From an uncultured Acidobacteriaceae bacterium (GTDB taxonomy: Bacteria; Acidobacteriota; Terriglobia; Terriglobales; Acidobacteriaceae): a stretch of DNA of 64,000 nucleotides. The DNA lies in the NCBI GenBank assembly GCA_963838015.1, contig CAWIPG010000007.1:114867-178866 (forward strand), in the 5' to 3' direction. Shown here in pieces: positions 413 to 31,601 of this stretch (position 1 is the stretch's first letter; every line of letters begins with the position of its first letter). Below the pieces are notes generated by a model. That model had not been told where the DNA came from, did not search any database, and was given only the letters and a program-made list of their open reading frames with translations. A program made the translations under genes and the position numbers.

Positions 413-823
413 CTACAGATCCACGGCCAGTCGATCTGCCAGTCTCGCGGAGGCCGCGATCGTGACCGCACGCCAATTTTGGCTTGTCGATCGAGGCGGG
501 TTACTCACTAACTCCAACTCCTCGAGCCAGTCCTCCGCGGAGAGTTTGGCCTCCTCGGGACCAAACAGTTGAGCCACAGCGCCGATGAATGCTGATAACT
601 CACGCTCCGCCATATCCATTTCGTCGGAGCAATTCGAATCGCGAAACTGTTCTTGAGAGTTCGTGGAATCCGCCCCCATTTTTTTCCTACGGTCTGCGGC
701 GACAAATCCTAACGTTGCTCGAAATGCTAACCGTTGCGGCGCTGGCATTGTGGCTGCGGCGGAAACGCCTGCCGTGGCCAATAAATAGCCACGCAATACC
801 TCGATTGATTTCATATGCTCCAT
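413..823 (-). CDS. hypothetical protein
   Basis: Internal ATG at 823 is preceded by AGGGAG. The longer ORF to 985 would run over upstream-module copy A. No recognisable domain. Confidence 0.45.
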   Translation of the reverse strand: MEHMKSIEVLRGYLLATAGVSAAATMPAPQRLAFRATLGFVAADRRKKMGADSTNSQEQFRDSNCSDEMDMAERELSAFIGAVAQLFGPEEAKLSAEDWLEELELVSNPPRSTSQNWRAVTIAASARLADRLAVDL

Positions 824-952
824 GATCGATCTCCCTTTGTTGCTGCGCTGCGGAAGCGCGAGATTCTCCGGCCAAGACGACACCTGTATAATCTTGGTCA
901 TTTTTCTTCTTCTAATTCCCTTGTGACGTTTCCGATTGAGCTCGGTCGACGC

Positions 953-1013
953 GGTGATCAGAACAGAAGCCTGGGAGATGAACAATTGGACGATAGTATC
1001 GTCGATACTATGG
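953..1013 (-). promoter_or_regulatory. bipartite upstream module, copy A (faces gene 413-823)
   Basis: Minus strand reads CCTACCATAGTATCGACGATACTATCGTCCAATTG, then 14 nt, then TTCTGTTCTGATC. Confidence 0.5.
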
Positions 1014-1158
1014 TAGGGGCGGGGTTGCGCAGGTTGGGCATCGCGACAGAAAACTTCTGACGGAGGCTGCGCAATAGGGTTCCGTTGCTTTGGAGCAGGG
1101 CAAGAGCAATACCAAAGTACAATGGACGTCCTTCGTACAATGCCGCATTATTTTTGTT

Positions 1159-1554
1159 ATGAAGTCTGTTAAGGACAGGAGCGAGAAGGAGCTTCCGCTT
1201 CTATCCATGGTCGATGATGATGAGTCGATGCGTGAATCGCTACCCGACCTGATTAGGGAGTTCGGCTTTGCCGCTCGAGCTTTTTCGTCAGCAGAGGAGT
1301 TCCTCTCCTCCGGTTCCGTCGATGAGACTAGCTGTTTGATCCTCGACGTCGCCATGCCAGGCATGAGCGGACCGGAACTTTTCCAGGAGCTAAAGCGTCG
1401 CGGAGAAGAGATCCCAACTATATTCATTACCGCTCAAAAAGATGAGGCGATTCGTGCTCGAGTGCTTGAGCAAGGCGCAGTGGGGTTTCTAATCAAACCA
1501 TTCAGTGACGCAGATCTGCTTGCGGCCATCAAGACCGCACTCAAAGCCATCTAA
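1159..1554 (+). CDS. stand-alone response regulator (CheY-like receiver)
   Basis: [15 protein letters not shown]...[15 protein letters not shown]...IFITAQ...KPF receiver motifs. ATG at 1159 chosen within ORF 1090-1554. Confidence 0.85.
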
Positions 1555-1586
1555 CAATCCACCGGCGGAATCTTAAGGGGGATACA

Positions 1587-2267
1587 ATGAATGCGACGAG
1601 CGCACTTAGTCGTGAAGTAAGGGTACTTCCAATGTCGAGCGTCATCCCCACCGTGTTCATTGTTGACGATGATGTGTCTGTGCGCGAATCGCTGGAACTA
1701 TTGGTTCGGGATGAGAACTGGAAGCCGGAGACCTTCGCGTCCGCGCAAGAATTTCTCGACTACCCGAGAAAACGCGTCCCGAGCTGTCTTGTTCTTGACC
1801 TATCGCTTCCGGGCTTGAATGGTCTTGAATTGCAGAAGCGGCTGGCGGTTGAACACATCGACATGCCAATCATTTTCATCACCGGTCATGGCGACGTGCC
1901 ACAGTCAGTTCAGGCCATGAAAGCCGGCGCTCTCGAATTTCTAACCAAGCCTATCGATACTGACGCATTGGTGAGCGCAATACGAAATGCTCTCCAACGC
2001 AACAGTCTAGCCCTCGCTCAGAACGCGGAGATGCAGGAACTTCGGAATCGTTACGCCTCGCTTACTTCCCGAGAGAAGCAGGTGATGGCGCTGGTTGTCT
2101 CTGGGTTGCTGAATAAACAAGTTGGCGGAGAGCTCGGTATCAGCGAGATCACAGTGAAGGCACACCGTGGGCAGGTGATGCAAAAAATGAAAGCCAATTC
2201 CCTCGCCGACCTGGTGAGGATGGCGTCAAAACTCCGGCCTGCGAGTCCTCCAATTCACTTGGCTTGA
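1587..2267 (+). CDS. FixJ/LuxR-family response regulator (receiver + LuxR HTH)
   Basis: VFIVDDD...[15 protein letters not shown]...IFITGHGDV...KP receiver, then [54 protein letters not shown] precedes the ATG. Confidence 0.9.
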
Positions 2268-2568
2268 CGGCAGCTCAGCCCCGGCTGAGTTCGTGGTAGA
2301 CCGTAGCTAGCTAGACTCGCGATACTTGCTGTGATCACTCCGTAGAATCCTTCCCCCGTTCTTTTGCTAATAGTACTCCCAGTTACTTCTCCGTTCTCCG
2401 ACAGTAGTGACGTGTGCGACATTCATTGCGAGATTTTATTGGCCTCGCATCCCATCCTGCCACTTAGAAGCTCCAACTAATTCGTAGTCAGCCACATTAA
2501 AAATTATCCAAGCTCTGTTCAATCATCCGCTGCCTTCTCGGGTAGGCAATCATCGGCCCGACTGATGC

Positions 2569-2628
2569 GATGGTATCGGTCGATACCATCGTCCAATGGA
2601 TTGGACTTCAAGCTTCTGGCTTAATCGC
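2569..2628 (+). promoter_or_regulatory. bipartite upstream module, copy B
   Basis: GATGGTATCGGTCGATACCATCGTCCAATGG, then 14 nt, then TTCTGGCTTAATCGC. Confidence 0.5.
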
Positions 2629-2660
2629 GTTGTTAGTCGTTGCCACAGGAAGCGATTTAT

Positions 2661-2807
2661 ATGACAGAGAAGAAAACAGCAATGGTAGCGGAAACTCGAC
2701 GCATAGCATGTGCAACTCTGCAGAACGTTCTCGCTGCCGGCGTTCTGATGTTCTATTCGAAGAGTCTACTGGGAGCTGTAATTCGGGCATGTGTAGGCGC
2801 TAGTTAA
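2661..2807 (+). CDS. possible 48-aa small protein (below the ORF-track cutoff)
   Basis: ATG 2661 lies 8 nt after AGGAAG and about 30 nt downstream of module copy B. Product MTEKKTAMVAETRRIACATLQNVLAAGVLMFYSKSLLGAVIRACVGAS has a hydrophobic C-terminal half. No homology evidence. Confidence 0.25.
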   Translation: MTEKKTAMVAETRRIACATLQNVLAAGVLMFYSKSLLGAVIRACVGAS

Positions 2808-2847
2808 TTTTCGTTCGGGATTGTTTCTATTCTTTGTGGAGGAGACT

Positions 2848-3120
2848 ATGAGCTGGGCAAAATGGGTTCTTGCATACGTATTTGACTGCGCCCATCTAAA
2901 AACGACTTGGCCGCAACGCTGCCGCGCAGGGCTCGATTATGTCTGCTGTCTCGATTGCGGGAAGGAGTTTCCTTATTCGACCCAACTGATGAGGATAGTA
3001 AGTAGAGAGGAACAACTAGAGGATCGAAGTCCGTTCAGTTGGGCGCAGCTCGAGAATGTTAGATCCGCACCCATCGCGCACTCTAATGCAAAGTTGTCGA
3101 TCGATACTTTGGCCCAATAG
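2848..3120 (+). CDS. small Cys-rich hypothetical protein
   Basis: ATG 2848 is preceded by GGAGGAG. Contains FDCAH...CCLDCGKEF, a zinc-ribbon-like pattern. Confidence 0.45.
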   Translation: MSWAKWVLAYVFDCAHLKTTWPQRCRAGLDYVCCLDCGKEFPYSTQLMRIVSREEQLEDRSPFSWAQLENVRSAPIAHSNAKLSIDTLAQ

Positions 3121-3164
3121 CTTTCGGTCTTGGTGCCTCCACGGCCCACTACGTGGCTTGTCGA

Positions 3165-6100
3165 GCGGGTGTGGCACACCGGCTCGCGATTTCTGCTACC
3201 ATTCACCCGTGCGTATGAGGAAAATCGATTGATGTGCGAGACGTTCACGCTATCGCTTATTCCTAGCGTCGCAAAGGCGGTGAAAGCTGATTCCGCTATC
3301 CATCCTGATCAAAACCCTGAGTTGTGCCATGTGCTGCGCCGATCGGCGTTGGCTCACATTTCATCGCTCTCGCTATTTAGTCATCGCGGCAATCCTGCTG
3401 TCGACGTCTCTTTTTTCCGGTTGCCATAAGCCCGCACAGCCGGTGACACTCACATATTTTGATTCTGACGGCCGAGGAGTCCCTGGCGATCATCGGATGG
3501 TCCCAGTCGCCTATTTGCAGGAATTTACGCGGGAAACCGGCATTCGCGTCAATGACCTTCCGACGCCGGAGGACAGCGGATCAAAGCTCGATCTTGCCAT
3601 GGATTTGCTGCGCAGCGGCGCCCCATCTCCGGACCTGGATGGTGTTGATACGATCTGGACTGGAGCCATGGGTGACTACCTCATCGACCTGCGACCTTAC
3701 TTTGCTTCAGAGATTTCCACGGAGGATCACGACATCATCGAAAGCTATATGTTTCAGGGGAAGGTTCTGGGAATGCCGAACCAGCCGCTGGGTGTGCAGG
3801 TTTTGATTTATCGGACGGACTTGCTCGCCAAGTACGGATACAAAACGCCACCCCGGACCTGGGTTGAGCTTGAGAAAATGGCTGCCCGGATTCAAGCTGG
3901 AGAGCGTGCAAAAGGGAAGAAAGATTTTTGGGGCTTCGTCTGGGCCGGAGCGATCGCAACCGACAGCGAACAACTTACGATGGAAGGATTGGAGTGGCAA
4001 GCGGCAGAAGGAGGCGGCCACATCATCGAGTCCGATGGAAAGGTCAGCGTAAACAACCCAAACGTTATCCGGGCTTGGGATCGCGCAGCACATTGGGTAG
4101 GGTCAATCTCTCCTCCAAGCGTGGTTTCTTATACGGCGACCGACGCAGAAAATAAATTTTGGATCTCCGGTGAGGCTGCGTTTCTGCTTAGCCACGCCAT
4201 CGTGTATGAGGTTTTTGCACAAGATAAGCCGTTCCGCGACCTAGCGGGAGTGACCAGCGTCCCTGCGGGAAAAAGCGCGCGCGTCGCTACCACAGGAGGC
4301 TACGCTCTGGGGATATCCCGCTTTTCACCTCACCGCGCCGAAGCCGTCAAGTTCATCCAATTCCTGCTTCGCAAGCACGCAGAATTCACGGCGACTCATC
4401 CGCAAAATCCAGCCCGAAAAGTGGAGTACTTTGAAGTTCCACCTTTGATGAGGGAAATCTATCCGTGGTGGTACAAACCGGGAGAATCGGGAGGGAGTGA
4501 GATAGTTGCGCGTCCGTCGGCGGTTGCCGGATCGAACTATCAAGCGGTCTCCAAAGCCTATACCCACGCACTGCATTCTGTGCTGACGCGAGAGTCCACC
4601 GCTCCTGTAGCGGCCGCGGCGCTCGAGAATGAACTCATCCGGATTATGGGTAATGGGGCTCAACCGGGAACAGGGTCGCGCTGAGATGAATCGACTGCGA
4701 CTCAAGATTGGTCCACGCCTGGTTCTACGCTTCGCGCAGGGACGTCCGCTAACGATTTCTGCTACCATTCGTCCGTGCCAACGACGGAAATCGATTGATG
4801 TGCGAGAAGTTCACGCTATCGCTTATTCCTAACGTTGCAAAGGCGGTGAAAACCGCTTCTGTTATCCTTCCGAATCAAAACCGTGAGTTATATGATGCGC
4901 TGCGCCGAACGACATTGGTCTGCATCTCATCGCATCCGAAATTTCATCATGGTGGCAATCCTGCTGTCGGGGTCTCTTTTTTCCGGTTGCCGTAAGCCCA
5001 CGCAACCCGTGACCATCTCATTTCTCGATGCTGAAGGCCAGGGAGTTCCGGGCGACCATCGGATGCTTTCGGACGTCTTACAGGAATTCACGCGGGAAAC
5101 AGGCATTCGCGTCAACGACCTTTCCACGCCAGAGGATAATGGATCGAAACTCGATCTTGCCATGAGTTTGCTGCGTAGCGGTGCTCCGTCCCCTGACGTT
5201 TATAGCGTTGACACGATCTGGGCCGGAACCATGGGCGATTACCTGATCGACCTGCAACCTTACTTTGCGTCAGAGATTCCCTCGCAGGATCGCGACTTTA
5301 TAGAGAGCTACATGGTTCATGGGAAGCTTGTGGCAATGCCCTATAACCCGAATGTGGAGGTTTTGGTTTATCGGACGGACCTGCTCGCGAAATATGGTTA
5401 CAAAACGCCGCCAAGAACCTGGGATGAGCTTGAGAAGATGGCGGCCCGGATTCAGGCTGGAGAGCGCGGAGAAGGAAAGAAAGATTTTTGGGGCTTCGTC
5501 TGGGCCGGAGCGATCGCATCGGAAAGCGAAGCGCTGATCGGCGAAGGGCTCGAATGGCAAGCAGCGGAAGGAGGCGGCCACATCATCGAGCCCGATGGCA
5601 GGATCAGCGTCAACAATCCAGATGTTGTTCGGGCCTGGGAACGAGCTGCACACTGGGTGGGTTGGATTTCGCCTCCAAGCGTGGTTTCTTACACTACTAC
5701 AGACTCAGAAAATAAATTCTGGGTTTCCGGGAATGCTGCATTTCAGCTCGAATGGGCCCTCACGTATGAGGTTGGCGTATTAGACAAGCCGTTCCGCGAC
5801 AAAGTTGGAGTGACTAGCATCCCTGCTGGAAAAAGCGCGCGAGTCGCGGACGTGGGCGCCTACTCTTTGGGAATTTCTCGTACTTCAGCTCACCGCGACG
5901 AAGCCGTACAGCTCATCCAGTTCCTCATTCGCAAACAGGCACAATCCCTGGCCTCACCTCATGTTGAAAAGTTAGGCCGAAAGGTCGAGTACTTTGAAGT
6001 CCCCTTGGTGATGGCGAAAATCTATCCCTGGTGGTGCAAGCCCGGGGAATCTGCTGGGAGTACTGTCGTTTTGCGCCCGTCGGTAGTTGCCGGATCGAAC

Positions 6101-6300
6101 TATGAGGCGGTTTCCAAAGCTTATTCGCACGCACTGCATTCCGTGCTGACGCGAGAGTCCACCGCTCCAGCAGCGGCCGCGGCTCTCGAGAAGAGATCGT
6201 TCAGATCATGGGTAGTGGCGGGACTCAACTGGGAACAGGTGCGCACTGAGATGAATCGACTGCGACTCAACATCGGTCCACGGCTGGTTCTATGCTTCGT
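3165..6300. repeat. diverged tandem duplication, two units offset by about 1566 bp
   Basis: Anchors: GATTTCTGCTACCATTC at 3188 and 4754; ATGAATCGACTGCGACTCAA at 4686 and 6251. Each unit holds upstream leader, SBP gene and the first ~15 codons of the kinase. Confidence 0.85.
3329..4684 (+). CDS. extracellular solute-binding protein (family 1 type), lipoprotein, copy 1
   Basis: Lipobox LFSGC. SBP-like sequence throughout. The TGA stop is followed 1 nt later by a remnant kinase ATG (TGAgATG). Confidence 0.85.
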   Translation: MCCADRRWLTFHRSRYLVIAAILLSTSLFSGCHKPAQPVTLTYFDSDGRGVPGDHRMVPVAYLQEFTRETGIRVNDLPTPEDSGSKLDLAMDLLRSGAPSPDLDGVDTIWTGAMGDYLIDLRPYFASEISTEDHDIIESYMFQGKVLGMPNQPLGVQVLIYRTDLLAKYGYKTPPRTWVELEKMAARIQAGERAKGKKDFWGFVWAGAIATDSEQLTMEGLEWQAAEGGGHIIESDGKVSVNNPNVIRAWDRAAHWVGSISPPSVVSYTATDAENKFWISGEAAFLLSHAIVYEVFAQDKPFRDLAGVTSVPAGKSARVATTGGYALGISRFSPHRAEAVKFIQFLLRKHAEFTATHPQNPARKVEYFEVPPLMREIYPWWYKPGESGGSEIVARPSAVAGSNYQAVSKAYTHALHSVLTRESTAPVAAAALENELIRIMGNGAQPGTGSR

Positions 6301-8176
6301 ACTCATCATCGTTTCGATGTTGGTCGGGGATGTAGTCGTTCTATGGCAATTCCATGTCGTCCAGTCACAAGCGGAACGGCTCAATGAATATGACGAGGAG
6401 TTGGTAACTGTCTTGCGTGTTCACTCCGACGTGTTGAAGTTTCGCGACACGCTTGAGTCACTCGCGAACGCAAAAAATACCGAACATCTGAAGGCAGAGA
6501 CTCAATCGATGACTGAGGCGTTTGCGGAGGACATGCGAAGTGCAGAAAGCGCCCTGTTGGCCGTGCATTCCGACAACGCCTCTGACCCAACAACCCTCCC
6601 CACGCTCGCAGTCATCCAGTCGACGCTTCGATCACAGACTGCGTCAATGATCGAGTTGGCTGAAGCGAATGATTGGAACGCTTTGCAATTGCGGCTCGCC
6701 AACCAGCTACGCCCGCTCGAACTTTCGAGCTCTACCCTGGTGGAAAGCGTCGACCGCGAGGTAAAGACGGAACATACCCAGGTTGCAGCCAATATCCGCC
6801 AGGTGCAGCACTGGATTTTTATTGTTGTGCCGGCCACGGTTGTTCTCACCTTGTTGATTGCCGGGACATTGGGATTTGTAATTACGCGCAGCATCACGCG
6901 GCCCCTTGAACAACTGGTCGAGGGTTCAAAGATGTTGGCATTAGGGGAGTTCGAACATCGAGTTCCGATCGAGGGCGAAGATGAACTTGCCCAACTCGGG
7001 CGCGTATTTAACGATACGGCGCGACAATTGCACGATCTCTATGAGAGCTTGCAAAGCAGCGAGGACCGGCTCCGCCGGGTCATCAATACGATTCCCGCCC
7101 ATGTTTGGAGCTCTCTGCCGGATGGTTCAGTCGACTTCATCAATCAACGTTTGCTCGAATCTACTGGACTATCAATCGAGGCATTGCTTGGATCCGGTTG
7201 GCAGTCGATCGTTCATCCGGATGATCGGGCTAGATACATGGCTAAGTGGGGATCGGCATTGGCCACAGGTGAACCCGTCGAGATTGAAGCTCGCATTTGG
7301 ACTGCGCGGCGCGACTATCGGTGGTTGCTTGTGCGCAATGTACCTGTGCGTGATGGTCTTGGAGGGATCGTCAAGTGGTACGGTACCGGCATCGATATAG
7401 AGGACCGGAAACGCGCCGAAGAGGCATTACTTAAAGCGCAGGCAGATCTCGCACACGCGAATCGCGTAACTACAATGGGCGAACTCAGTGCCTCGCTTGC
7501 GCACGAGATCAATCAGCCCATTAGTGGCGCCATCACAAATGCTTCTACCTGTCTGCGCCGGCTCGATCGCGAGCCGCCTGATCTCGAAGGCGCCCGGGTT
7601 GCGGCTTCAAGGATAATTCGTGATGCGAACCGGGCAGCGGAGATCATTAACCGAATCAAGCTGTTTTTCACAAAGGGTGTTGTGACAAAGGAGAGCCTGG
7701 ATGTCAACGAGCTGATTCGCGAGATGGAGATTCTTCTGCGTAACGAAGCGACCCAGCATTCGGTTTCTGTTCAGACAAAGCTCGCAGCGGATCTGCCGCT
7801 CATCGTGGCAGACCGGATCCAGTTGCAGCAGGTATTGATGAACCTGATGATCAATGGCATCGACGCGATGAAGGCCGTCGATGGCCCGCGTCAACTCACG
7901 CTCGGCACCGGGACTGATAGCAATGAACAGCTTCTGGTATCGGTCGAAGACACTGGTATCGGACTTCCACATAACCAGTCTGACCAGATATTCAACGCTT
8001 TTTTTACGACCAAGGAACACGGCACAGGAATGGGACTTCGTATCAGCCGAACGATTATTGAGGCTCACGGTGGCCGGCTCTGGGCTACGGACAACCATCC
8101 TCGCGGAGCGAGTTTTCATTTCACGCTGGCTGTCTCCTCCATTGCCGGGAGCCTTGACGCTGGGCGCAGCGCCTGA
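4883..8176 (+). CDS. sensor histidine kinase ORF with N-terminal SBP copy 2; probably two genes merged by a 1-nt indel
   Basis: The N-terminal ~440 aa are paralogous to 3329-4684. From MNRLRLNIGPRLVL (ATG 6251): TM, periplasmic helical region, TM, HAMP, PAS, HisKA (SLAHEINQP) and HATPase (DTGIGL...GTGMGL). Confidence 0.8.
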   Translation: MSYMMRCAERHWSASHRIRNFIMVAILLSGSLFSGCRKPTQPVTISFLDAEGQGVPGDHRMLSDVLQEFTRETGIRVNDLSTPEDNGSKLDLAMSLLRSGAPSPDVYSVDTIWAGTMGDYLIDLQPYFASEIPSQDRDFIESYMVHGKLVAMPYNPNVEVLVYRTDLLAKYGYKTPPRTWDELEKMAARIQAGERGEGKKDFWGFVWAGAIASESEALIGEGLEWQAAEGGGHIIEPDGRISVNNPDVVRAWERAAHWVGWISPPSVVSYTTTDSENKFWVSGNAAFQLEWALTYEVGVLDKPFRDKVGVTSIPAGKSARVADVGAYSLGISRTSAHRDEAVQLIQFLIRKQAQSLASPHVEKLGRKVEYFEVPLVMAKIYPWWCKPGESAGSTVVLRPSVVAGSNYEAVSKAYSHALHSVLTRESTAPAAAAALEKRSFRSWVVAGLNWEQVRTEMNRLRLNIGPRLVLCFVLIIVSMLVGDVVVLWQFHVVQSQAERLNEYDEELVTVLRVHSDVLKFRDTLESLANAKNTEHLKAETQSMTEAFAEDMRSAESALLAVHSDNASDPTTLPTLAVIQSTLRSQTASMIELAEANDWNALQLRLANQLRPLELSSSTLVESVDREVKTEHTQVAANIRQVQHWIFIVVPATVVLTLLIAGTLGFVITRSITRPLEQLVEGSKMLALGEFEHRVPIEGEDELAQLGRVFNDTARQLHDLYESLQSSEDRLRRVINTIPAHVWSSLPDGSVDFINQRLLESTGLSIEALLGSGWQSIVHPDDRARYMAKWGSALATGEPVEIEARIWTARRDYRWLLVRNVPVRDGLGGIVKWYGTGIDIEDRKRAEEALLKAQADLAHANRVTTMGELSASLAHEINQPISGAITNASTCLRRLDREPPDLEGARVAASRIIRDANRAAEIINRIKLFFTKGVVTKESLDVNELIREMEILLRNEATQHSVSVQTKLAADLPLIVADRIQLQQVLMNLMINGIDAMKAVDGPRQLTLGTGTDSNEQLLVSVEDTGIGLPHNQSDQIFNAFFTTKEHGTGMGLRISRTIIEAHGGRLWATDNHPRGASFHFTLAVSSIAGSLDAGRSA

Positions 8177-8205
8177 AGGCCCGGGAATTCGGCTTTGCAG
8201 CCGCT

Positions 8206-9606
8206 CTACGCAAACGGCTCCAGTTTGCCGAGGATGGTCGGCAGATATTCCGAGACTGTCGGATGAATGTGCATCGCGCGCTGGATTACCGTGTACGGCG
8301 CCTTCGCATACATCGCGTCTAGTAGAACATGAATCACTTCATCGCCTCCGACACCAAGAATCGCAGCACCCAGAATTTGTTTCGTTTCTGCATCGGCGCA
8401 GATCTTGATGAAACCTTGTGTCTCACCCTTTTCGTAGGCGCGACTTACCTTGCTCATCGGATATTTCACAGCGAGAGCCCGACGGCCCGACTTCCGTACC
8501 TCTGCGTCCGTCATGCCGCATCGTCCCAGCGGCGGATCGATATACAGCGCGTAGGCCTGGATCCGATCGGAAACACGGCGATGGTCAGCGTTAAAGAGAT
8601 TGTCCGCTACGATCTCGTAGTCGTTATAGGAAGTATGCGTGAAGGCGCCGCGGCCGTTGCAGTCGCCCAGAGCCCAGATACCGGGTACGTTGGTTTGGAG
8701 CTGATCGTCGACGATGATGTAGCCGCGTTGGTCGGTCGCAACCCCGGCCCGTTCGAGACCCAGATCGCTTGTATTGGGGATGCGCCCGACCGCTAGAAGC
8801 ACGTGCGTTCCTGACACTTCCTTCGAATCTTCGCTGCATTCCATGCGGACTACAACGCCGTTATTTCCTTTCGCCAGCGAGATACATTCCGCATTCAGCC
8901 GGATGTGTATGCCCTCAGCCTCCAGAATTTCGTGCACAGCTTGAGAGACGTCTTCGTCCTCCCGTCCAATGAGGCGCGGTCCCATTTCCACAATCGTGAC
9001 TTCGCTGCCGAAGCGGCGATAGATTTGGGCGAACTCCAGACCTACATAACTTCCGCCGCCGACGAGAAGATGTTCGGGCAAGAAATCGATGTCCATCATC
9101 GACGAGTTGTCGAGAAATGGGACGTCGTGAATCCCCGGCATATCGGGAATACGGGCCCGCCCGCCGACGTTGATATAGATCTTGTCGGCCTGCAGAACTT
9201 CATCGTTCACTACGACAGTGTTTGACGATTGAAAGCGGGCTTGGCCTTGTATGACCGTACAATTCTTCGTTGCTCGGAGCGATTCCTCCACTCCCTTGCT
9301 TGATCTCCCGGAGGCCGCATCCTTGCGGGCTTTGACTCGCTTAATATCGACGCGCACATCCCCAGTGGCAAAACCATATTCCGCACCTCGGCGGGCAACA
9401 TGGATCGCATAGGCGCTTGCCACCAGCGTCTTTGTCGGGATGCATCCCGTATTCACGCATGTGCCGCCAAATTTATGGCGTTCGATAATAGCGACAGTTT
9501 TGTCGGCGCTTGCAAACCGAGCCGCCAGGGCCGGGCCCGCCTGGCCGGTCCCGATAATGATTGCGTCAAAGTGCTTCATAGGAGAGACAATGTTTGCAGC
9601 GTTCAT
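8206..9606 (-). CDS. class I pyridine nucleotide-disulfide oxidoreductase (FAD)
   Basis: IIIGTGQAGP dinucleotide fold and GGTCVNTGCIPTK redox-active disulfide. GGAG precedes ATG 9606. Confidence 0.85.
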   Translation of the reverse strand: MNAANIVSPMKHFDAIIIGTGQAGPALAARFASADKTVAIIERHKFGGTCVNTGCIPTKTLVASAYAIHVARRGAEYGFATGDVRVDIKRVKARKDAASGRSSKGVEESLRATKNCTVIQGQARFQSSNTVVVNDEVLQADKIYINVGGRARIPDMPGIHDVPFLDNSSMMDIDFLPEHLLVGGGSYVGLEFAQIYRRFGSEVTIVEMGPRLIGREDEDVSQAVHEILEAEGIHIRLNAECISLAKGNNGVVVRMECSEDSKEVSGTHVLLAVGRIPNTSDLGLERAGVATDQRGYIIVDDQLQTNVPGIWALGDCNGRGAFTHTSYNDYEIVADNLFNADHRRVSDRIQAYALYIDPPLGRCGMTDAEVRKSGRRALAVKYPMSKVSRAYEKGETQGFIKICADAETKQILGAAILGVGGDEVIHVLLDAMYAKAPYTVIQRAMHIHPTVSEYLPTILGKLEPFA

Positions 9607-9630
9607 AATTGCTCCAATCGAGCTGACCTT

Positions 9631-9700
9631 GATTAGGCCAGAATCACGATAACGAATCTACAGGACGATCGCATCGACCACCACTAATCGGAAACGGGGC
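9631..9700 (-). promoter_or_regulatory. bipartite upstream module, copy F (degenerate box 1, faces 8206-9606)
   Basis: Minus strand reads ...GATGCGATCGTCCTGTAG, then 14 nt, then TTCTGGCCTAATC. It then runs 25 nt to ATG 9606. Confidence 0.4.
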
Positions 9701-9701
9701 C

Positions 9702-9766
9702 CGATACCAAGGTACCGCCGATACTATCGTCCAATTGATTCGCCGGAGCGCCTAGGGTGTAATCAG
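9702..9766 (+). promoter_or_regulatory. bipartite upstream module, copy C
   Basis: CGATACCAAGGTACCGCCGATACTATCGTCCAATTG, then 14 nt, then CTAGGGTGTAATCAG. It ends 10 nt before ATG 9776. Confidence 0.5.
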
Positions 9767-9775
9767 TGCCATCGC

Positions 9776-10093
9776 ATGTTCAAAGAAAGGATGGCGACCA
9801 CAATGCCGGAAGCAACCTGGAAACCTCACGAGAAACACGGACGGCTAACGATGCAGAGCGACTTGCCTGACAGCGTGTACGCGTTCCCAAAGCAGCGTAA
9901 AGAACCACTGACCGACGCACAACATGTGCGTAACGCGGTGGCGCGGTTCGATCAAGTTATCGACGTCTCCGATGGCGACCGTGCCTTGGCATTCGCGAAC
10001 ATCGAGAAAGCTGCAAGCTACTACGACGTCAACCTTGCGGAGACGTCGTGGCACGATTTGGCATCTCTCTCCAAAAGAGCAGAAAATATCTAA
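9776..10093 (+). CDS. DUF6582-like hypothetical protein
   Basis: AFPKQRKEPLTDAQHVRNAVARFDQV motif. An alternative start is ATG 9791. Confidence 0.6.
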   Translation: MFKERMATTMPEATWKPHEKHGRLTMQSDLPDSVYAFPKQRKEPLTDAQHVRNAVARFDQVIDVSDGDRALAFANIEKAASYYDVNLAETSWHDLASLSKRAENI

Positions 10094-10137
10094 AATCGTT
10101 TTGGTGACTATTTCCCCACCGTATACGGAGATGAATC

Positions 10138-11043
10138 ATGAAAGCAGTCGTTGTTCACCAATATGGCGGTCCAGAAGTACTGAAGTTCGAAGAGTATACG
10201 GACCCGGTTCCGGGTCCGGGTGAGGTGCTGGTGCGGGTCGCCGCCGCGAGCGTGAATCCGATTGACTACAAGCGGCGTGCGGGACTGACGCAGGATTTTT
10301 ATCCTATGCATTTCCCAGGTCTCATCGGAGTCGATATGGCGGGGACTGTGGTCAAGCTTGGATCGGGAGTAGAAGGATTCTCCGTCGGCGACCAGGTGTT
10401 CGCTATGGCGGATAATACTTACGCCGAACTTTGTGTCGTGAAGGCAGCGGTCCTGGCGAAGGTCCCGAAGGGGCTCGATTTGGTCCAGGCGGCTGCGCTG
10501 CCGCTGGTGACGACGACCGGCAACCAGCTTCTTCTTGCAACAGAAATCAAAGCCGGCCAGACGGTTGTGGTCGTGGGCGCGGTAGGAAACGTCGGGCGTT
10601 CGGCGATATTCACTGCGAAGGAACGTGGGGCAATTGTGATCGCGGGGGTGTTGAAGAGGCAGACGGATGAAGCAAAGACTGTGGGCGCGGATCAGGTGCT
10701 CGCAACTGACGACGACACCGCAATTGCGAATCTTCCGCCGCTCGATGCGGTCGCGGATACAGTCGGGGGAAGAACCGCCGAGAAGCTGATCCCCAAGGTG
10801 AAGCCGGGGGGAGTGTATGCATCGGTTGTCGAGGTGCCGCAGAACGCGGCGAAGTACCCAGCTGTAAGGGTGGTGCACGTATTCTCGAAATTCCACAGGA
10901 AAACGCTTGAGCATATGGCCGAAGCGGTGCGAGATGGCAAGCTGGTGATCCCGATTAGCCAGAAGCTGCCACTCAGTGAAGCGGCCGAGGCTCAGGCAGC
11001 CGCAGAAAAAGGTGGGATCGGGAAGATCTTGCTGGTGGCTTGA
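10138..11043 (+). CDS. NADPH:quinone oxidoreductase (MDR / zeta-crystallin family)
   Basis: MKAVVVHQYGGPEVL...GEVLVRVAAASVNPIDYK...VVVVGAVGNVG. Confidence 0.85.
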   Translation: MKAVVVHQYGGPEVLKFEEYTDPVPGPGEVLVRVAAASVNPIDYKRRAGLTQDFYPMHFPGLIGVDMAGTVVKLGSGVEGFSVGDQVFAMADNTYAELCVVKAAVLAKVPKGLDLVQAAALPLVTTTGNQLLLATEIKAGQTVVVVGAVGNVGRSAIFTAKERGAIVIAGVLKRQTDEAKTVGADQVLATDDDTAIANLPPLDAVADTVGGRTAEKLIPKVKPGGVYASVVEVPQNAAKYPAVRVVHVFSKFHRKTLEHMAEAVRDGKLVIPISQKLPLSEAAEAQAAAEKGGIGKILLVA

Positions 11044-11074
11044 ACTCTCCGCTGAACATAACGTTCAAGGAAAA

Positions 11075-11557
11075 TCAGATCTTGCCGGCGAGCCAGTAAT
11101 CGACGCTAAACCTTCCCGGGCCGGAGCAGAGCAGCCAGATAAAGAAGAGCACGTACAAGACTTCCGGAAGGTAGAGAAAATCGTCGAGCCAGTTTAGAGG
11201 GGAGAGTCCCTTAGGCAGGGTGGAAATTGCGTTGGTCAGGGTGGCGACAGTCATATCGATCAATAAGGCCACGCAGGCCACACTCGAAAGAAACCCGACG
11301 GTCAGCAAGGATCCGCAAACGAACTCGACACCCGCTACGAAATAAGCCGTCTGCCGGGGAAACGGGACTTTGGCCTTGACGAGCGTTTCGTAAACAGGCT
11401 TCGTACCGCCGGCGACAAATAATTTGTTTGCACCTGAGATGGCGAAGAACAGCCCGATCGAAACGCGTACCAGGAGGATGGCATACTGCTCCAAATCACC
11501 GTTACCCAACCGTGCAAACTGGACCAACCGTTTCCAATCCATCTCTAGTCCCTCCAT
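11075..11557 (-). CDS. DoxX family membrane protein
   Basis: LLVRVSIGLFFAISGANKLF and four hydrophobic segments. Confidence 0.75.
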   Translation of the reverse strand: MEGLEMDWKRLVQFARLGNGDLEQYAILLVRVSIGLFFAISGANKLFVAGGTKPVYETLVKAKVPFPRQTAYFVAGVEFVCGSLLTVGFLSSVACVALLIDMTVATLTNAISTLPKGLSPLNWLDDFLYLPEVLYVLFFIWLLCSGPGRFSVDYWLAGKI

Positions 11558-11572
11558 CGTTTCGGCGCGAGA

Positions 11573-11992
11573 TTATGTGTCCATCCGTTCGACCCATTGA
11601 GCGCGCGATGGGGAACCCACGAATGGATCCGCGAAATACTGTGTTTCCCGCGCAACCTTTTTGCCCGTGAACTCCATGATGCTCACGGTGTGAAACGGCT
11701 TGCCGTCATACGTCAGGGTGAGTTCGGTGACCCAAAGATCACCGTCGCCAATGATTCGCCGGACAGTAAACCGCTTCTTGCTCGGCTGACCGGTGCATTG
11801 GTTCTGTATATTGCTTCGACCGCGGGTTCGCTCACCGGACTGCGGGTAATCCAGCACCGCGTCTTCGTGATAGATAAGGTGCTCAGTTTCAAAATCATTG
11901 GCATCGGACGCCGCCCAATGCTGATTCAGTGCCGCACGGATCTCTTGATCTCGCGCTCCTGAGCACTGATCGTCCTTTTGTTGATCGTTCAT
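11573..11992 (-). CDS. SnoaL/NTF2-like fold protein
   Basis: Size and LNQHWAASDANDFE...DAVLDYPQSGE...DLWVTE pattern. Confidence 0.6.
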   Translation of the reverse strand: MNDQQKDDQCSGARDQEIRAALNQHWAASDANDFETEHLIYHEDAVLDYPQSGERTRGRSNIQNQCTGQPSKKRFTVRRIIGDGDLWVTELTLTYDGKPFHTVSIMEFTGKKVARETQYFADPFVGSPSRAQWVERMDT

Positions 11993-12028
11993 CTTGGGCG
12001 CTCAATTTGAAAGAAGCTAAAACTCCTC

Positions 12029-12496
12029 TTATGCGTTGTTTCGCGGATCGTCTTTCGCGCTGAGGTATTCGAGTCCGAGAGGGCCCATCGCGGTTACCTG
12101 CGTGACGTACTCGCTGGATTTCGCCCAGTGGAAATGGGGCGTGTTGCCAGGGAGAATGATCACGGCGCCGGGCGGATAGGCTTGCAACTTACTCGCATCG
12201 AACTCATCACCCAGTCCGATATAAAAGACGCCGGAAATCACGGTATAGACCCGATCCTCCGGGTGCTTGTGAGGCATCAGCTTTTCGCCGTGGGGCACTT
12301 TTACCCTCATTGTATAAGGGCTGGGCTCCGAGGGCTGGCCCACCACGACGGCCAGCCGGACGGAAGGTGGGAACGCAGGGAACGGTTTCCAATCGATATC
12401 TTCGGACAAGATGGCTTTGAAAACCTCTTGCCCGAGCTGGTGAGGCCGGACTTCGCTTTGCTGAGCGCGCTTTACGACGGCGGTTTTCTGAGACAT
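12029..12496 (-). CDS. cupin domain protein
   Basis: MPHKHPEDRVYTVISGVFYIGLGD...PGNTPHFHWA, the two cupin motifs. Confidence 0.75.
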   Translation of the reverse strand: MSQKTAVVKRAQQSEVRPHQLGQEVFKAILSEDIDWKPFPAFPPSVRLAVVVGQPSEPSPYTMRVKVPHGEKLMPHKHPEDRVYTVISGVFYIGLGDEFDASKLQAYPPGAVIILPGNTPHFHWAKSSEYVTQVTAMGPLGLEYLSAKDDPRNNA

Positions 12497-12646
12497 ACAA
12501 ACTCCTTCGTGCAGAAAATGTAGAGCTCACGACAGGCTTTCGGAACATGTCGTCCGAAGCATGTCTATCAAAACATATCTTGCCGAGATTGGCTTCGAAT
12601 ACCCTTACCCTCAACGCACCGAAAATAAGAATCGCGTCGGACGAAC

Positions 12647-13519
12647 CTAGTGCGCGATTTGGCCCAGGTAGTATCCGAGCCGATCTTCGACATCCCCTGG
12701 CTTATGAAAGCCGCGCGCCATCAGCGCCTTGATTCCCTCCTGAGCCGCAGGCCGCCCGAGCGAAGCGATGCACGCATCCCATCCGGCCCCGAGCTCGACA
12801 TCCGGCGGCAGGCTGGTGTTGACGAGGCGCTTGGTGTTGGCGATCGCCCATTTGTCGAACTTGGCGATCCGGGTCGCGAGCGCCTCTACGAACGCATCCA
12901 GCTCGGCGTCAGGTAGGGCGCGATTAATGTAGCCGTACGCCTCGGCCTGGTCTGCCAGGATGTCTTCCGAGCTCAAGAGCACCTCGAGGGCGCGGTTTCG
13001 GCCGATGAGTCGGGGCAGCCGAGCCATGGGGCCGCCGCCAGCGACCATTCCGACGCCCACCTCCCATTGCGAGATGATAGTCTTTTCGCGGCTGGCGAAA
13101 CTCATGTCGCAGGCCAGCGTAATCTCGCTGCCATTGCCGGTCGCACGACCACGGATGAGTGCGATAGAAGCGACTGGCAGGCGAGTCAGACGCGCGAGAA
13201 AGTCCGGCCAAGGCGGCAAGCCTGTGGGTCCGGCCGGCATTTCTGTAAGGTCTTCAAGCTTGGCCGTGAAATCGGAGTGATTGAGGAAATAGTCGCCGAC
13301 CGCGCTGTCGAAGACCACAACCCTGACTTGCTCATCAGCCTCAAGAGCATTTATGACTTCCTGGAACTCCCGGACCATTTCCGGGCCCATGACATTGATC
13401 GGCGGGTTGTCGATCGTGACACGCCAATAGGCGGGTGACCTCTGGGTCACGCGAATCTGCGGGGATTTCGTGGGTGCGCTCACCTCTGTGAGTTTGGCGG
13501 GTGCGTTCATAGTAGCCAT
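12647..13519 (-). CDS. enoyl-CoA hydratase/isomerase (crotonase) family protein
   Basis: WRVTIDNPPINVMG...VRVVVFDSAV...IRGRATGNGSE. ATG 13519 is preceded by AGGAAA; the ORF-track start 13549 has no RBS. Confidence 0.8.
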   Translation of the reverse strand: MATMNAPAKLTEVSAPTKSPQIRVTQRSPAYWRVTIDNPPINVMGPEMVREFQEVINALEADEQVRVVVFDSAVGDYFLNHSDFTAKLEDLTEMPAGPTGLPPWPDFLARLTRLPVASIALIRGRATGNGSEITLACDMSFASREKTIISQWEVGVGMVAGGGPMARLPRLIGRNRALEVLLSSEDILADQAEAYGYINRALPDAELDAFVEALATRIAKFDKWAIANTKRLVNTSLPPDVELGAGWDACIASLGRPAAQEGIKALMARGFHKPGDVEDRLGYYLGQIAH

Positions 13520-13598
13520 GGGATTTTCCTCGTATTTGTCAGTCTTCATTTGTCAGTCTTGGGAACCTTGTTGGCCGAATCCAACAATAAAAGCTGTA

Positions 13599-13663
13599 AT
13601 CATTCAGCCAGAACAGAATGGGCTGCGCAATTGGACGATGGTATTGCCCATACTTTCGTATCG
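13599..13663 (-). promoter_or_regulatory. bipartite upstream module, copy D (faces 12647-13519 operon)
   Basis: Minus strand reads CGATACGAAAGTATGGGCAATACCATCGTCCAATTG, then 14 nt, then TTCTGGCTGAATGAT. Confidence 0.5.
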
Positions 13664-13759
13664 ACTGCGGCGTCTTCACGCCTGAGGCATCCGGGTTGTT
13701 CTTCGTCCAGTTGGTCATTCAGTTTTGATCAAAGCGAAGGAAGCCTCCTCCCGCACACC

Positions 13760-13824
13760 CGATACGAAGGTATCCCCTATACCATCGTCCAATTGTTTAA
13801 CTCCCTCACTTCTGGCCTAATCGC
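13760..13824 (+). promoter_or_regulatory. bipartite upstream module, copy E (faces cytochrome P460 gene)
   Basis: CGATACGAAGGTATCCCCTATACCATCGTCCAATTG, then 14 nt, then TTCTGGCCTAATCGC. Confidence 0.5.
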
Positions 13825-13885
13825 AATTGCTCGACGTGCACGCTGATGGAGCTGCAGAAAACTTTTTTGTGAAAGAGAGCACACT

Positions 13886-14512
13886 ATGTTTGAGCTGGTG
13901 ACAAAATCTGTAACGCAAGAACAACGGAAGACAGGGAAACGCACCGCAGTAAAACGTATCGCCGCCTTTACCATCGGATTGGCAGCCGGAGCGGTGCTTG
14001 CCCTACTCGTCGCCCCGGGGGTTTTCGCGCAAGGCCAGAACGGAGTCCAAGATAAAGGCAAGTATTCGCTGCAATCGCCGGGCGGAATCGCCTTCTCGGA
14101 CTTTAGAGGCTATGAGGACTGGTCTGCGGTCTCCTCCGCCCGAACCGACGAAGTGCTCAAAGTAATCGTCGGCAATCCAACCATAATCACGGCGTACAAG
14201 TCCGGCATTCCGGGCAACGGGCAGCCTTTTCCGGATGGCTCAATGCTCGTGAAGCTCCAGTGGAAGCCGAAGAAGAGTACGGAGGCTCAGTTCGCCGTGG
14301 ATGTACCAGACGTCTTTACCCAGGCTTTCGTCATGGAAAAGGACAGCAAGAGATTTCCGAAGAGTGGCGGGTGGGGATACGCGGTGTTCAACTACGACGC
14401 TGCATCAGACAAGTTCACGGCCGACCCCAAAAGCCTCTCAGACTGCGGAAACGCCTGCCATACGGTCGTGAAGGCGAAGGACTATGTCTTCCACCCGTAC
14501 CAGAAGCGTTGA
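13886..14512 (+). CDS. cytochrome P460 family protein
   Basis: Signal peptide, FRGYEDW...LVKLQWK...GGWGYAVF, and the C-terminal heme motif CGNACH. Confidence 0.8.
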   Translation: MFELVTKSVTQEQRKTGKRTAVKRIAAFTIGLAAGAVLALLVAPGVFAQGQNGVQDKGKYSLQSPGGIAFSDFRGYEDWSAVSSARTDEVLKVIVGNPTIITAYKSGIPGNGQPFPDGSMLVKLQWKPKKSTEAQFAVDVPDVFTQAFVMEKDSKRFPKSGGWGYAVFNYDAASDKFTADPKSLSDCGNACHTVVKAKDYVFHPYQKR

Positions 14513-14545
14513 CCAGCCGTGCCAAACTTTTCACAAGGAGGAAAT

Positions 14546-14752
14546 ATGGATCACAATGAGGCAGTCCGGAAATTTGAACATTTGATGATCAAACAGGCCG
14601 ACCACGCGCACGAGGCGGCAATCGAGCTTGAAGCTTTGGTTCTGCTCATGCCCAGTGAGAAATCTCGCCAGCTCGCGCACCTTCAAATAAAGGCGAGTCA
14701 CAAACAATCTAAAGACTTCCGCGAACTGGCGCAGAAAGCCAAGGAAAGCTAG
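14546..14752 (+). CDS. small hypothetical protein
   Basis: ATG 14546 is preceded by AAGGAGG. Helical and charged, with no recognised domain. Confidence 0.45.
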   Translation: MDHNEAVRKFEHLMIKQADHAHEAAIELEALVLLMPSEKSRQLAHLQIKASHKQSKDFRELAQKAKES

Positions 14753-16042: not shown

Positions 16043-16132
16043 TGGCGGAGGGAGAGGGATTCGAACCCCCGGTACCCTTTCAGGTACAGCGGTTTTCAAG
16101 ACCGCCTGTTTCAACCACTCACACATCCCTCC
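16043..16132 (-). tRNA. tRNA-Ser (anticodon UGA), CCA encoded
   Basis: Minus strand GGAGGGATGTGTGAGTGGTTGAAACAGGCGGTCTTGAAAACCGCTGTACCTGAAAGGGTACCGGGGGTTCGAATCCCTCTCCCTCCGCCA. It has a 7-bp acceptor stem, CTTGAAA anticodon loop, long variable arm and GTTCGAATC T-loop. Confidence 0.93.
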
Positions 16133-17171: not shown

Positions 17172-18587
17172 TTACTCGTAGCGAAGGGCTTGCACGGGAT
17201 CAAGACGGGCGGCGCGTCCAGCGGGATAGAGGCCCGCCGCGAGGCTCACAAGGAAAGAAAACAGTACGGCAAACCCCACCAGCCACAACGGAACCGACCA
17301 CAAGTGCTCTGGTGGATAAGACTGACTTTTGAGGTAAATGTTGGTCCCAAGGTTGATCACCTGGCCGATCGCCCAGCCCAGGGCGACTCCGACAAGACCA
17401 CCGAGGATTCCCATCGCGCCTGCTTCCGCGAAAAAGAGTTTCTTCACGTCAGCGTCGCTGGCACCAATGGCTTTCATGATTCCGATCTCGCGGCGGCGCT
17501 CCAGAATTGCCATGACGAGTGTGTTCACAATTCCGATGAAAGCCACCGCCAGGGCGAGGCTGCCGAAAATTCCGAGAAACACATCGAGCACCCTGAAGAA
17601 TTGCTGGATGCTGCGGCTGGCGTCGAGAATCGAGAAGGTGTTGAAGCCCATCTTCTTGATGGCGTCTTCTACTTTCCGAACCTGGCTGGGGTCGTTCACT
17701 CGAACGCTCACGGAGGAATAAACCGGCTGATCGCTGGCGGCGCGGGAAATCTCGCGGAGGTCCGTGGGCTGCATCACATGCAAACTCTCAGCCAGCTTGA
17801 GCGGGAGAAAGACTCGTGCCCGGGTTGGTCCGCGCATGCTTTCGGGATCGAGATCGGCAACGCCGGCAATCTTCAGCTTTAGTTCACGCGAAACCACGGA
17901 GTAAGCGGCATCGGCTAGATTGTTGCTATTCGAGCTGGCTGATTGGTTCGAGGCCGTCGTCGCCGCGGCCGCGCTCTGTGCGGCTTCGCGCTGGGCATAG
18001 CGCATCGTCAATTCCTTGCCTAGCAGCGGACCGGCCACTTCCGCCACGTTGGTTTCGTCGACACCGGGCTTCGGAGTTCTTCCCAGCAGCTCTTCGGCGA
18101 ATGTCTTTTGAAGAATCGCTTCGGGTGCGGTGTCGGAGGAGAAGAAGTGTCCCTGCACGGTATCAAAAGCGTCGTTCGATTTCGCGGAAGCGGGCAGCGC
18201 AGAGATCATGGTCAGATGCGGCTTGTCGTCGTAGCGCAACTCGGTGATGAAGCGAATATCGGGATAGGCTTCGAGCACGTTCGGGAGATGTTCGATCTCC
18301 ACTCGAGTGGCTTCGTCGAGGATGCGGCTTTCCCCTGGCGCCGGGCCGTTGCGCTCTTCCTCACGACCGAAGTTGCGCAGATCGCGGCGCGAGGTCACCA
18401 CCACGGTGTCGAACAATCCTGACTTCATCAAGCGCCGCGATGCCATTTGTTGCAGACCGATGCCAAGAGAAAGCATTGCGACCAGCGACGCGACACCGAC
18501 CGAGATGCCGAGGGTGGTCAGCGAATTTCGCAGGAGAGACTCGCGCAAGTTGCGCAGGGCGAGCTCGGTGAGGTCGGGAAGTTTCAT
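17172..18587 (-). CDS. ABC transporter permease, MacB/FtsX type
   Basis: N-terminal TM, large periplasmic domain and C-terminal FtsX-like 3-TM bundle. Overlaps the ATPase gene by 4 nt. Confidence 0.85.
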   Translation of the reverse strand: MKLPDLTELALRNLRESLLRNSLTTLGISVGVASLVAMLSLGIGLQQMASRRLMKSGLFDTVVVTSRRDLRNFGREEERNGPAPGESRILDEATRVEIEHLPNVLEAYPDIRFITELRYDDKPHLTMISALPASAKSNDAFDTVQGHFFSSDTAPEAILQKTFAEELLGRTPKPGVDETNVAEVAGPLLGKELTMRYAQREAAQSAAAATTASNQSASSNSNNLADAAYSVVSRELKLKIAGVADLDPESMRGPTRARVFLPLKLAESLHVMQPTDLREISRAASDQPVYSSVSVRVNDPSQVRKVEDAIKKMGFNTFSILDASRSIQQFFRVLDVFLGIFGSLALAVAFIGIVNTLVMAILERRREIGIMKAIGASDADVKKLFFAEAGAMGILGGLVGVALGWAIGQVINLGTNIYLKSQSYPPEHLWSVPLWLVGFAVLFSFLVSLAAGLYPAGRAARLDPVQALRYE

Positions 18588-31454: not shown

Positions 31455-31489
31455 TCGGAATGCAAATAAAAATGAAGCTCGCATCCGAA

Positions 31490-31601
31490 TCTCATGTTCC
31501 CCGTTTCCGGGCGGGAGTTGGCACCTGGCGGTCGGGATATATGATCCCGATCCGGTTGCCGTGGCGTCACAGGGCTCGTCCCTCAGCCACTCTGCATGAA
31601 A
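31490..31601 (-). promoter_or_regulatory. SAM-I (S-box) riboswitch
   Basis: Minus strand reads TTTCATGCAGAGTGGCTGAGGGACGAGCCCTGTGACGCCACGGCAACC...CCAGGTGCCAACTCCCGCCCGGAAACGGGGAACATGAGA. This matches the conserved SAM-I core (AGAG, GAGGGA, GGCCC-like, GGCAACC, GGTGCCAA, closing P1 CATGA). Confidence 0.85.

Follow-up and report, generated by a model that had tools for sequence, protein, structure and literature searches.

Six copies of a probable composite operator-promoter module in an acidobacterial locus, and the FixJ-like two-component regulon to which they may belong

The closest characterised relatives of the system described here are the StyS/StyR (PstyA) and TodS/TodT (PtodX) systems of Pseudomonas. 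FixJ/NarL-type regulators of the StyR/TodT kind recognise the sequence ATAAAC-N4-GTTTAT (PMC5874301), and phosphorylated StyR, bound to a high-affinity site near -40, activates transcription (PMC2442086). In this study we analysed 64,000 nucleotides of DNA from an uncultured Acidobacteriaceae bacterium (this whole stretch is called the window below), in which a regulatory module of about 60 nt recurs six times within 14 kb, and in which the gene of a FixJ-like response regulator (1587-2267, plus strand) is found between the first two copies. Judging from the sequence, each copy is quite probably a composite, activator-dependent promoter belonging to one two-component regulon.

The resemblance to the Pseudomonas systems begins with the regulator, which here too combines a receiver (REC) domain with a LuxR/GerE helix-turn-helix (HTH), and extends to a 6-N4-6 inverted-repeat operator (ATAAAC-N4-GTTTAT there, CGATAC-N4-GTATCG here), to the presence of several adjacent or cooperative sites including half-palindromes, to an essential site near -40 (here predicted at about -43.5 from leaderless receiver genes) and to a PAS-containing kinase as the partner. 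The locus differs from them in the sequence of the half-site and in that its sites lie 1-2 nt apart and are fused at an invariant distance to a conserved -10 region. It also differs in the size and content of the regulon, with at least 6 promoters per locus and detoxification and redox genes rather than one catabolic operon, in having no evident IHF site, and in its hosts, which are Acidobacteriota, rhizobia and Burkholderiales. A second comparison is with rhizobial oxygen sensing by FixL-FixJ(-FixT). The protein encoded at 1587-2267 has Response_reg (2.8e-27) and GerE (1.9e-21) domains and its best NCBIfam match is FixJ, as that of the kinase is FixL, while the single-domain receiver protein encoded in the operon recalls FixT. 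However, both scores are under the equivalog cut-offs (209 bits against 255 for FixJ, NF006900; 200 bits against 850 for FixL), so that FixJ and FixL proper were rejected as identities; the sensor is a periplasmic solute-binding domain (GAF/PAS with a MEDS protein in relatives), and the targets are not fixK or nifA.

A preliminary description of this DNA had picked out the six copies by inspection, and all of them are present where it placed them; likewise, the spacer is exactly 14 nt in all six window modules, every copy (6/6) faces a gene start, and the two divergent back-to-back pairs it reported are real. In the numbering used here, position 0 is the A of ACYATCG, and the spacer is the distance from box 1 to box 2, the upstream and downstream conserved blocks. 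With up to 3 mismatches allowed, the bipartite pattern was found at 5 sites in the window, against 0.00 expected from 100 dinucleotide shuffles. A 44-nt position weight matrix (PWM) built from the six modules, a check that had been proposed for them, separates the window copies clearly: the six score 51-64 bits, or 19-52 bits when scored leave-one-out, and nowhere else in the 64 kb does the score exceed -1.7 bits. These figures confirm that the six repeats are real, non-random copies of what we read as a composite promoter. The earlier statement that the other 50 kb hold no copy stands for the standard module; a variant seventh copy lies among the six, at 1107-1151 (plus strand).

The anatomy of box 1 became apparent from its upstream flank. 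The N4 between CGATAC and GTCCAAT is free (CATC, CAAG, GTTC, CATG, CTTG, TAAG and others), and because these four central bases vary while both flanks stay fixed, the sequence indicates a 6-N4-6 site, CGATAC-N4-GTCCAAT(T/G/A)G, with box 1 as its 3' part; this site is called site II below. A second site, site I, is the palindrome CGATAC-N4-GTATCG, located 1-2 nt from site II; allowing up to 3 mismatches, it is present in 156 of 233 modules and at 1 of 233 control positions. The GATAC/GTATC dyads, earlier suggested to be the site of a dimeric regulator, are thus 6-N4-6 palindromes conserved across genomes, in keeping with that suggestion. In relaxed scans of the 8-kb genome tiles, boxes 1 and 2 were never found without a CGATAC half-site. 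Near regulator orthologues of alpha- and beta-proteobacteria box 1 is kept, and box 2 is mostly replaced there by other -10-like hexamers.

Box 2 has the consensus TTCTGnYnTRAT, and its likely role emerged from a variant class of modules found 5' of a single-receiver gene, in which site II is followed by a spacer of 14 or 15 nt and then by GCGCATTCTT or GCCGCATTATT, without TCTG. In 11 receiver orthologues (131 aa in 10 of them, 129 aa in one; 60-85% identity) the ATG lies exactly 47 nt past position 0, and 48 nt in the window copy. It follows an nAnnnT hexamer at positions 35-40 by 6-7 nt, and in the window follows CATTAT by 7 nt, which looks like a conserved leaderless arrangement. Because these apparently leaderless genes calibrate the geometry, the hexamer would occupy positions 35-40, the transcription start would fall near position 47, and the centre of site II would lie at about -43.5; box 2 may then be taken as the -10 region. 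In the standard modules, YnTRAT occupies positions 35-40, a TG (T32, G33) falls at -15/-14 and T40 at -7, and the TTG that ends site II (positions 12-14) lies 17 bp upstream of the hexamer, an arrangement that matches a sigma70 extended -10 promoter. TCTG is present in 188 of 235 modules, the spacer is 14 nt (one nt longer in 12%), and conservation runs on into TRAT, 3 nt past TCTG. The hexamer positions are less uniform elsewhere: the DUF6582 class of promoters is without TCTG and keeps TGTAAT, rhizobial copies have GAATTT (with CTG before it), GATCCT, GAAGCT or CAATCT, one Mesorhizobium ciceri copy carries TTCTGGCGTTAT, and TTCTG also occurs with the A-containing hexamers CAATCT and CAATTT (Terriglobia) and AACCAT (one Burkholderiales tile). 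The alternative -10 registers 36-41, 37-42 and 38-43 were rejected, their -7 positions not being conserved. Readings as sigma54, FixK-box, NarL-heptamer, sigma28 or sigma32 elements were also set aside for wrong spacing or sequence, on comparison by eye with consensus sequences.

With these elements defined, the window copies can be described individually. Module 1 (956-1018, minus strand), which points at the open reading frame (ORF) 413-901, has site I as CCCTAC-cata-GTATCG, site II as CGATAC-tatc-GTCCAATTG, the 14-nt spacer and box 2 as TTCTGTTCTGATC. Ahead of the kinase operon, module 2 (2563-2626, plus strand) consists of a near-perfect palindrome, GATGGTATCG-GT-CGATACCATC, box 1 GTCCAATGG, the 14-nt spacer and box 2 TTCTGGCTTAATC. 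Module 3 (9631-9676, minus strand) is degenerate, with site II CGATGC-gatc-GTCCTGTAG, the 14-nt spacer and box 2 TTCTGGCCTAATC; its box 1 (CGTCCTGTAG) departs from the consensus, the upstream dyad is missing, and it lies 25 nt 5' of the ATG of a pyridine-nucleotide-disulfide oxidoreductase gene. In module 4 (9702-9764, plus strand), ahead of the DUF6582 gene, sites I and II are standard, and the degenerate box 2, CTAGGGTGTAATC, is the variant conserved in the DUF6582 promoter class of other genomes. Module 5 (13601-13663, minus strand) has box 2 TTCTGGCTGAATG and precedes the crotonase gene, and module 6 (13760-13822, plus strand), ahead of a cytochrome P460 gene, is the nearest of all copies to the consensus. 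The variant seventh module, 5' of the receiver gene, has site II CAATAC-caaa-GTACAATGG, a 14-nt spacer and the hexamer CATTAT at 1146-1151. A further element, the TTC-N5-GAA palindrome gctCAATCGGaaa (929-941, minus strand), follows box 2 of module 1 at 18 nt; the same palindrome (ATTCAATCGGAAT) recurs 18-19 nt past box 2 in about 25 modules, which belong to several gene classes (for example in tiles L003, L017, L053 and L078), and may be a second operator or an element of the 5' untranslated region.

To see how far the module extends, the exact pattern ACYATCGTCCAATKG-N14-TTCTG was scanned over 185,579 species genomes, in which it matched at least 119 tiles of 8 kb, against a chance expectation of about 4 by our own estimate. 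Among the matches listed, almost all tiles were from metagenome-assembled genomes (MAGs) of Terriglobia (Acidobacteriaceae, Sulfotelmatobacter, Terracidiphilus, Korobacteraceae), and four were high-GC Burkholderiales tiles, including Variovorax sp. WDL1. Exact and relaxed scans together gave about 230 modules in at least 119 tiles plus the window. The module is conserved in soil Acidobacteria and some Proteobacteria. Positions that the pattern left unconstrained were also kept in the 128 listed exact matches from other genomes: in the flank C-4 (120/128), A-2 (125/128) and T-1 (123/128), in box 2 Y35, T37, R38, A39 (125/128) and T40 (124/128), and upstream GATAC..AA.GTAT, that is, CGATAC-N4-GTATCG. 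The spacer in other genomes is 14 nt in 188 modules, 15 nt in 27 and 13 nt in 2. A downstream ORF was found for 131 of 134 sites, 101 of those ORFs belonging to recurrent families, and an ORF of at least 100 aa starts no more than 250 nt downstream of 187 of 208 modules. Whether a module falls inside a long open frame is uninformative as an intergenic test at 56% GC, 120 of the 208 modules being in spurious frames. The recurrent targets are cytochrome P460, crotonase, epoxide hydrolases, alpha/beta hydrolases, DoxX, SnoaL, cupin, quinone oxidoreductase, glyoxalase/VOC, DJ-1, metallo-beta-lactamase fold, MOSC, SDR, RidA and ECF (extracytoplasmic function) sigma proteins, a set that suggests a detoxification or redox-stress regulon. 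A megablast of window positions 900-14600 against plasmids returned distant matches to the oxidoreductase gene alone.

Orthologues of the regulator with at least 65% identity are encoded in 26 motif-bearing tiles, usually in an operon of the regulator, in some cases a MEDS protein, a PAS kinase and a single receiver, and in many Terriglobia tiles this operon lies beside the modules or is divergent from them. A tblastn search with the regulator against 72,556 plasmid records gave orthologues of 56-64% identity in Cupriavidus, Sinorhizobium, Mesorhizobium, Rhizobium and Paraburkholderia. The loci inspected, from the first four of these genera, contain the same type of kinase/receiver/regulator operon; their intergenic regions carry sites I and II, and the operon has genes for epoxide hydrolases, alpha/beta hydrolases, cupin, SDR and FMN reductase as neighbours. 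In the reciprocal blastn search, a 65-nt module consensus matched 15 of the 72,556 records; 12 of these 15 are among the best 25 replicons with a regulator orthologue, and the site lies 5-18 kb from the regulator gene. Regulator orthologues thus co-localise with the sites across three phyla or classes, and the reciprocal plasmid result seems to us the strongest evidence for pairing the regulator with the operator. The product of 1587-2267, the FixJ/LuxR regulator already named in the preliminary description, accordingly appears to be the best candidate for the binder of sites I and II. Because the presumed regulator-operator pair is present on rhizobial and Cupriavidus replicons, the findings indicate that the circuit spread horizontally between phyla. 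Modules are carried by M. ciceri R30 and R. leguminosarum WSM1325, as they are by Variovorax sp. WDL1. Accessory or symbiotic replicons with the operon and the operator beside epoxide hydrolase clusters include Sinorhizobium fredii pSF45436e (L122), a plasmid of M. ciceri (L123), Rhizobium leguminosarum pR132502 (L124) and Cupriavidus sp. KK10 p1 (L121). The sensor domains vary by lineage, with a periplasmic solute-binding protein (SBP) domain in the window and GAF/PAS domains with a MEDS protein elsewhere.

From these observations a working circuit can be proposed. The phosphorylated FixJ-like regulator would bind as dimers to the two adjacent 6-N4-6 sites, of which site I, the distal palindrome, is present in about two thirds of the copies, and site II would be the obligatory proximal half-palindrome, standing in place of a -35 element, with its centre some 43-44 bp before the start. 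From site II the regulator would activate, rather than repress, by recruiting RNA polymerase to the -10 region in box 2 at its fixed distance, and transcription would start about 7 nt past the final T of box 2. The SBP-HAMP-PAS histidine kinase is the putative cognate kinase, and because its operon carries module 2, positive feedback would be expected. The receiver and regulator genes themselves would be transcribed from the variant module, with its ordinary nAnnnT hexamer and leaderless start, and the targets of the circuit would be detoxification and redox enzymes. As to the holoenzyme that reads box 2, we lean slightly towards the one containing the housekeeping sigma factor, an ECF factor being less likely and any third candidate less likely still.

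Several observations weigh against this account. An A at -11 is found in 0/128 of the listed exact matches and in 2/188 of the TCTG-type modules, and canonical promoters of the window do have it, namely TTGACG-N17-TAGCAT of the S-adenosylmethionine (SAM) riboswitch and TAAAAT of tRNA-Ser. Because -11A is almost absent from the modules yet present in these canonical promoters, the standard housekeeping-sigma interpretation is uncomfortable; a scan of the window with the sigma70 consensus, which requires -11A, misses all of the modules. Among non-orthologous promoters box 2 varies far less than ordinary -10 hexamers do, and in relatives a conserved gene for an ECF sigma factor always has a standard module in front of it. 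GTCCAAT, the right half of site II, differs from the palindromic half-site of the regulator, and another protein may read it. Finally, site II abuts or overlaps the TTG at -35, which would also suit a repressor. If the housekeeping factor does read box 2, we can only infer that the missing -11A might reflect selection against an extended -10 so close to the consensus that it would need no activator to fire.

The alternative that survives best is that an ECF sigma factor reads box 2, perhaps along with the CCAAT of box 1, and that the FixJ-like regulator bound upstream is its co-activator, the two-component system and the ECF factor forming an AND gate or feed-forward loop in which the ECF factor, through the same module, controls its own gene. 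This is a tentative possibility. RpoE-type promoters co-activated by response regulators are found in Escherichia coli (degP, with sigmaE and CpxR) and Pseudomonas aeruginosa (algD, with AlgU and AlgR), and the spacing of the RpoE consensus is that of CCAATT-N16-TCTG. The modules share with such promoters the bipartite form, the strict spacer, a TCTG 16-17 nt past an AA-containing upstream box, a response-regulator site upstream and, in relatives, an ECF gene behind the motif. They differ in that the upstream box lacks AAC and is part of the regulator site, in that no ECF gene is present in the window, and in that conservation reaches TRAT. Two-component control of ECF transcription is documented (PMC7826278). 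As in the CseBC-sigmaE system of Streptomyces (ECF39 type), relatives have an ECF gene that lies behind a response-regulator site and has no obvious anti-sigma partner. In contrast to that system, the same module also precedes dozens of non-sigma genes, the ECF gene being one target among many.

What speaks for an ECF factor, apart from the RpoE-like spacing and an -11A so rare as to be atypical for sigma70, comes mainly from the relatives. Two ECF subfamilies are encoded there, and 9 of 9 genes (examined in loci L015, L023, L049, L063, L092, L103, L107, L129 and L132) are behind a standard module or in a module-driven operon. One subfamily is highly conserved in Terriglobia, with 2422 homologues, of which the best 120 listed clusters have 72-100% identity, and NCBIfam and PDB sequence searches placed it in the general ECF family only. 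The conserved gene lies at 5501-6118 (minus strand) of L049, 6001-6654 of L129 and 6001-6726 of L132, and no conserved anti-sigma gene is found beside it in L129 and L132, which would fit control at the level of transcription. Yet neither the 64-kb window nor the adjoining 8.4 kb upstream contains an ECF homologue; the gene of L049 is located at the equivalent of window positions 2807-2848 and that of L129 in a partly syntenic region, and the window lacks it at both. The 90-aa Cys-rich gene that follows the ECF gene in L049 is retained in the window. Box 1, with no AAC core, belongs to a regulator-type 6-N4-6 site, boxes 1 and 2 never occur apart from the CGATAC half-site, and box 1 is conserved on proteobacterial replicons, although the plasmid collection has no ECF orthologue above about 41% identity. 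The M. ciceri plasmid carries TTCTGGCGTTAT, and no orthologue of the conserved ECF was detected in that collection. The DUF6582 class keeps TGTAAT without TCTG, TTCTG is also found together with A-containing hexamers, and an extended -10 promoter of the sigma70 type would fit the geometry too. The more specific proposal that an ECF holoenzyme reads the standard modules with the FixJ-like regulator in place of the -35 element appears rather unlikely.

These points also bear on the suggestion in the preliminary description that the modules are RpoE-type ECF promoters. Its observation of TCTG at RpoE-like spacing stands, and box 2 as an ECF element keeps the limited likelihood just given, but box 1 (CCAATT) as the RpoE-like -35 is not supported. 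It is half of a 6-N4-6 site, GTCCAAT lying always 4 nt past CGATAC and without an AAC core, and it is conserved on proteobacterial replicons, where most copies carry a different box 2.

Repression is a much less probable alternative to the activator-dependent promoter proposed above. Here the regulator, or another dimeric protein, would occupy sites I and II and block a constitutive promoter whose -35 region overlaps site II; to that overlap can be added the TTC-N5-GAA palindrome downstream of box 2 in about 25 modules, which would imply that extra operators exist. However, the core promoter is weak by consensus, with no ACA in the -35 and no -11A, as activator-dependent promoters typically are, modules also lie ahead of the kinase operon and the regulator operon, which suggests positive autoregulation, and StyR and TodT, the closest characterised relatives, are activators (PMC2442086, PMC5874301). 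A mobile or selfish repeat of the REP or MITE kind (repetitive extragenic palindrome, miniature inverted-repeat transposable element) that happens to be intergenic, which several near-identical copies within 14 kb, some in back-to-back pairs, might bring to mind, has a negligible probability and is effectively refuted, as had been anticipated when a promoter/operator module was preferred to a mobile repeat, since about 230 copies in more than 100 genomes aim at the same gene families and have leaders that are short and fixed, conservation is confined to particular positions and leaves the spacers free, no copy lies in the other 50 kb of the window, and the modules co-occur with the regulator gene across phyla.

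The first gene behind module 1 (413-901, minus strand) encodes a 162-aa protein with no Pfam or NCBIfam match, and 23 tiles have homologues of it close to modules. The genes of the 131-aa single-domain receiver protein (1159-1554, plus strand), behind the variant seventh module, and of the regulator lie between modules 1 and 2 (1159-2267). The four-gene operon behind module 2 (2661-8176, plus strand) encodes a 48-aa membrane peptide (2661-2807), the 90-aa Cys-rich protein (2848-3120), an SBP (3329-4684) and the SBP-HAMP-PAS histidine kinase (4883-8176). The free SBP and the periplasmic domain of the kinase (4883-6300) are paralogues with 79.5% nucleotide identity, which looks like a recent tandem duplication. 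Module 3 is followed by the pyridine-nucleotide-disulfide oxidoreductase gene (8206-9606, minus strand), and module 4 by the genes of the DUF6582 protein (9791-10093) and a Zn-dependent quinone oxidoreductase (10138-11043), both on the plus strand. Behind module 5, on the minus strand, are the genes of crotonase (12647-13519), cupin (12029-12496), SnoaL (11573-11992) and DoxX (11075-11557); the crotonase leader (13520-13600, minus strand) exceeds that of orthologous promoters by about 80 nt and contains two copies of a direct repeat, aagactgacaaat. Module 6 is followed by the cytochrome P460 gene (13886-14512, plus strand).

The window comes from a metagenome contig, and a 99.8%-identical contig (L001) extends 8.4 kb upstream of the window and has no further module copy there. 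Relative to the window it has a 55-bp insertion (18198-18252 in its own numbering, equivalent to window 9784/9785) between module 4 and the DUF6582 start, and because of this insertion it seems that the true start of the DUF6582 gene is at 9791 or 9803. Several gene-splitting indels also distinguish the two assemblies. Elsewhere in the window are the tRNA-Ser gene (16043-16132, minus strand), the SAM riboswitch (31489-31602, minus strand) and a group II intron fragment (52061-52135, plus strand).

In the literature searched, we found no paper containing the motif, the box 1 strings returning only unrelated primers and viral sequences; nothing relevant on a P460/epoxide hydrolase/DoxX regulon was found, nor were any mapped transcription starts for Acidobacteria. 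An operator-promoter of the FixJ/NarL type is of a kind already known, and what we found no description of is the regulon shared across phyla. A sharply defined cis-element of about 60 nt with a putative regulator, a kinase and a conserved target set makes the regulon predictable genome-wide in hundreds of MAGs, and it offers an inducible promoter part for organisms without genetic tools. Which sigma factor reads a -10 region that is conserved yet lacks -11A is a clean mechanistic question. If an ECF factor does so with an activator substituting for its -35 element, the circuit would be a hard-wired AND gate or feed-forward loop with an autoregulated ECF that has no anti-sigma partner, and with -11A almost wholly excluded, the housekeeping sigma factor would be kept off these promoters. 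The module points to a widespread and directly testable detoxification or electrophile-stress response.

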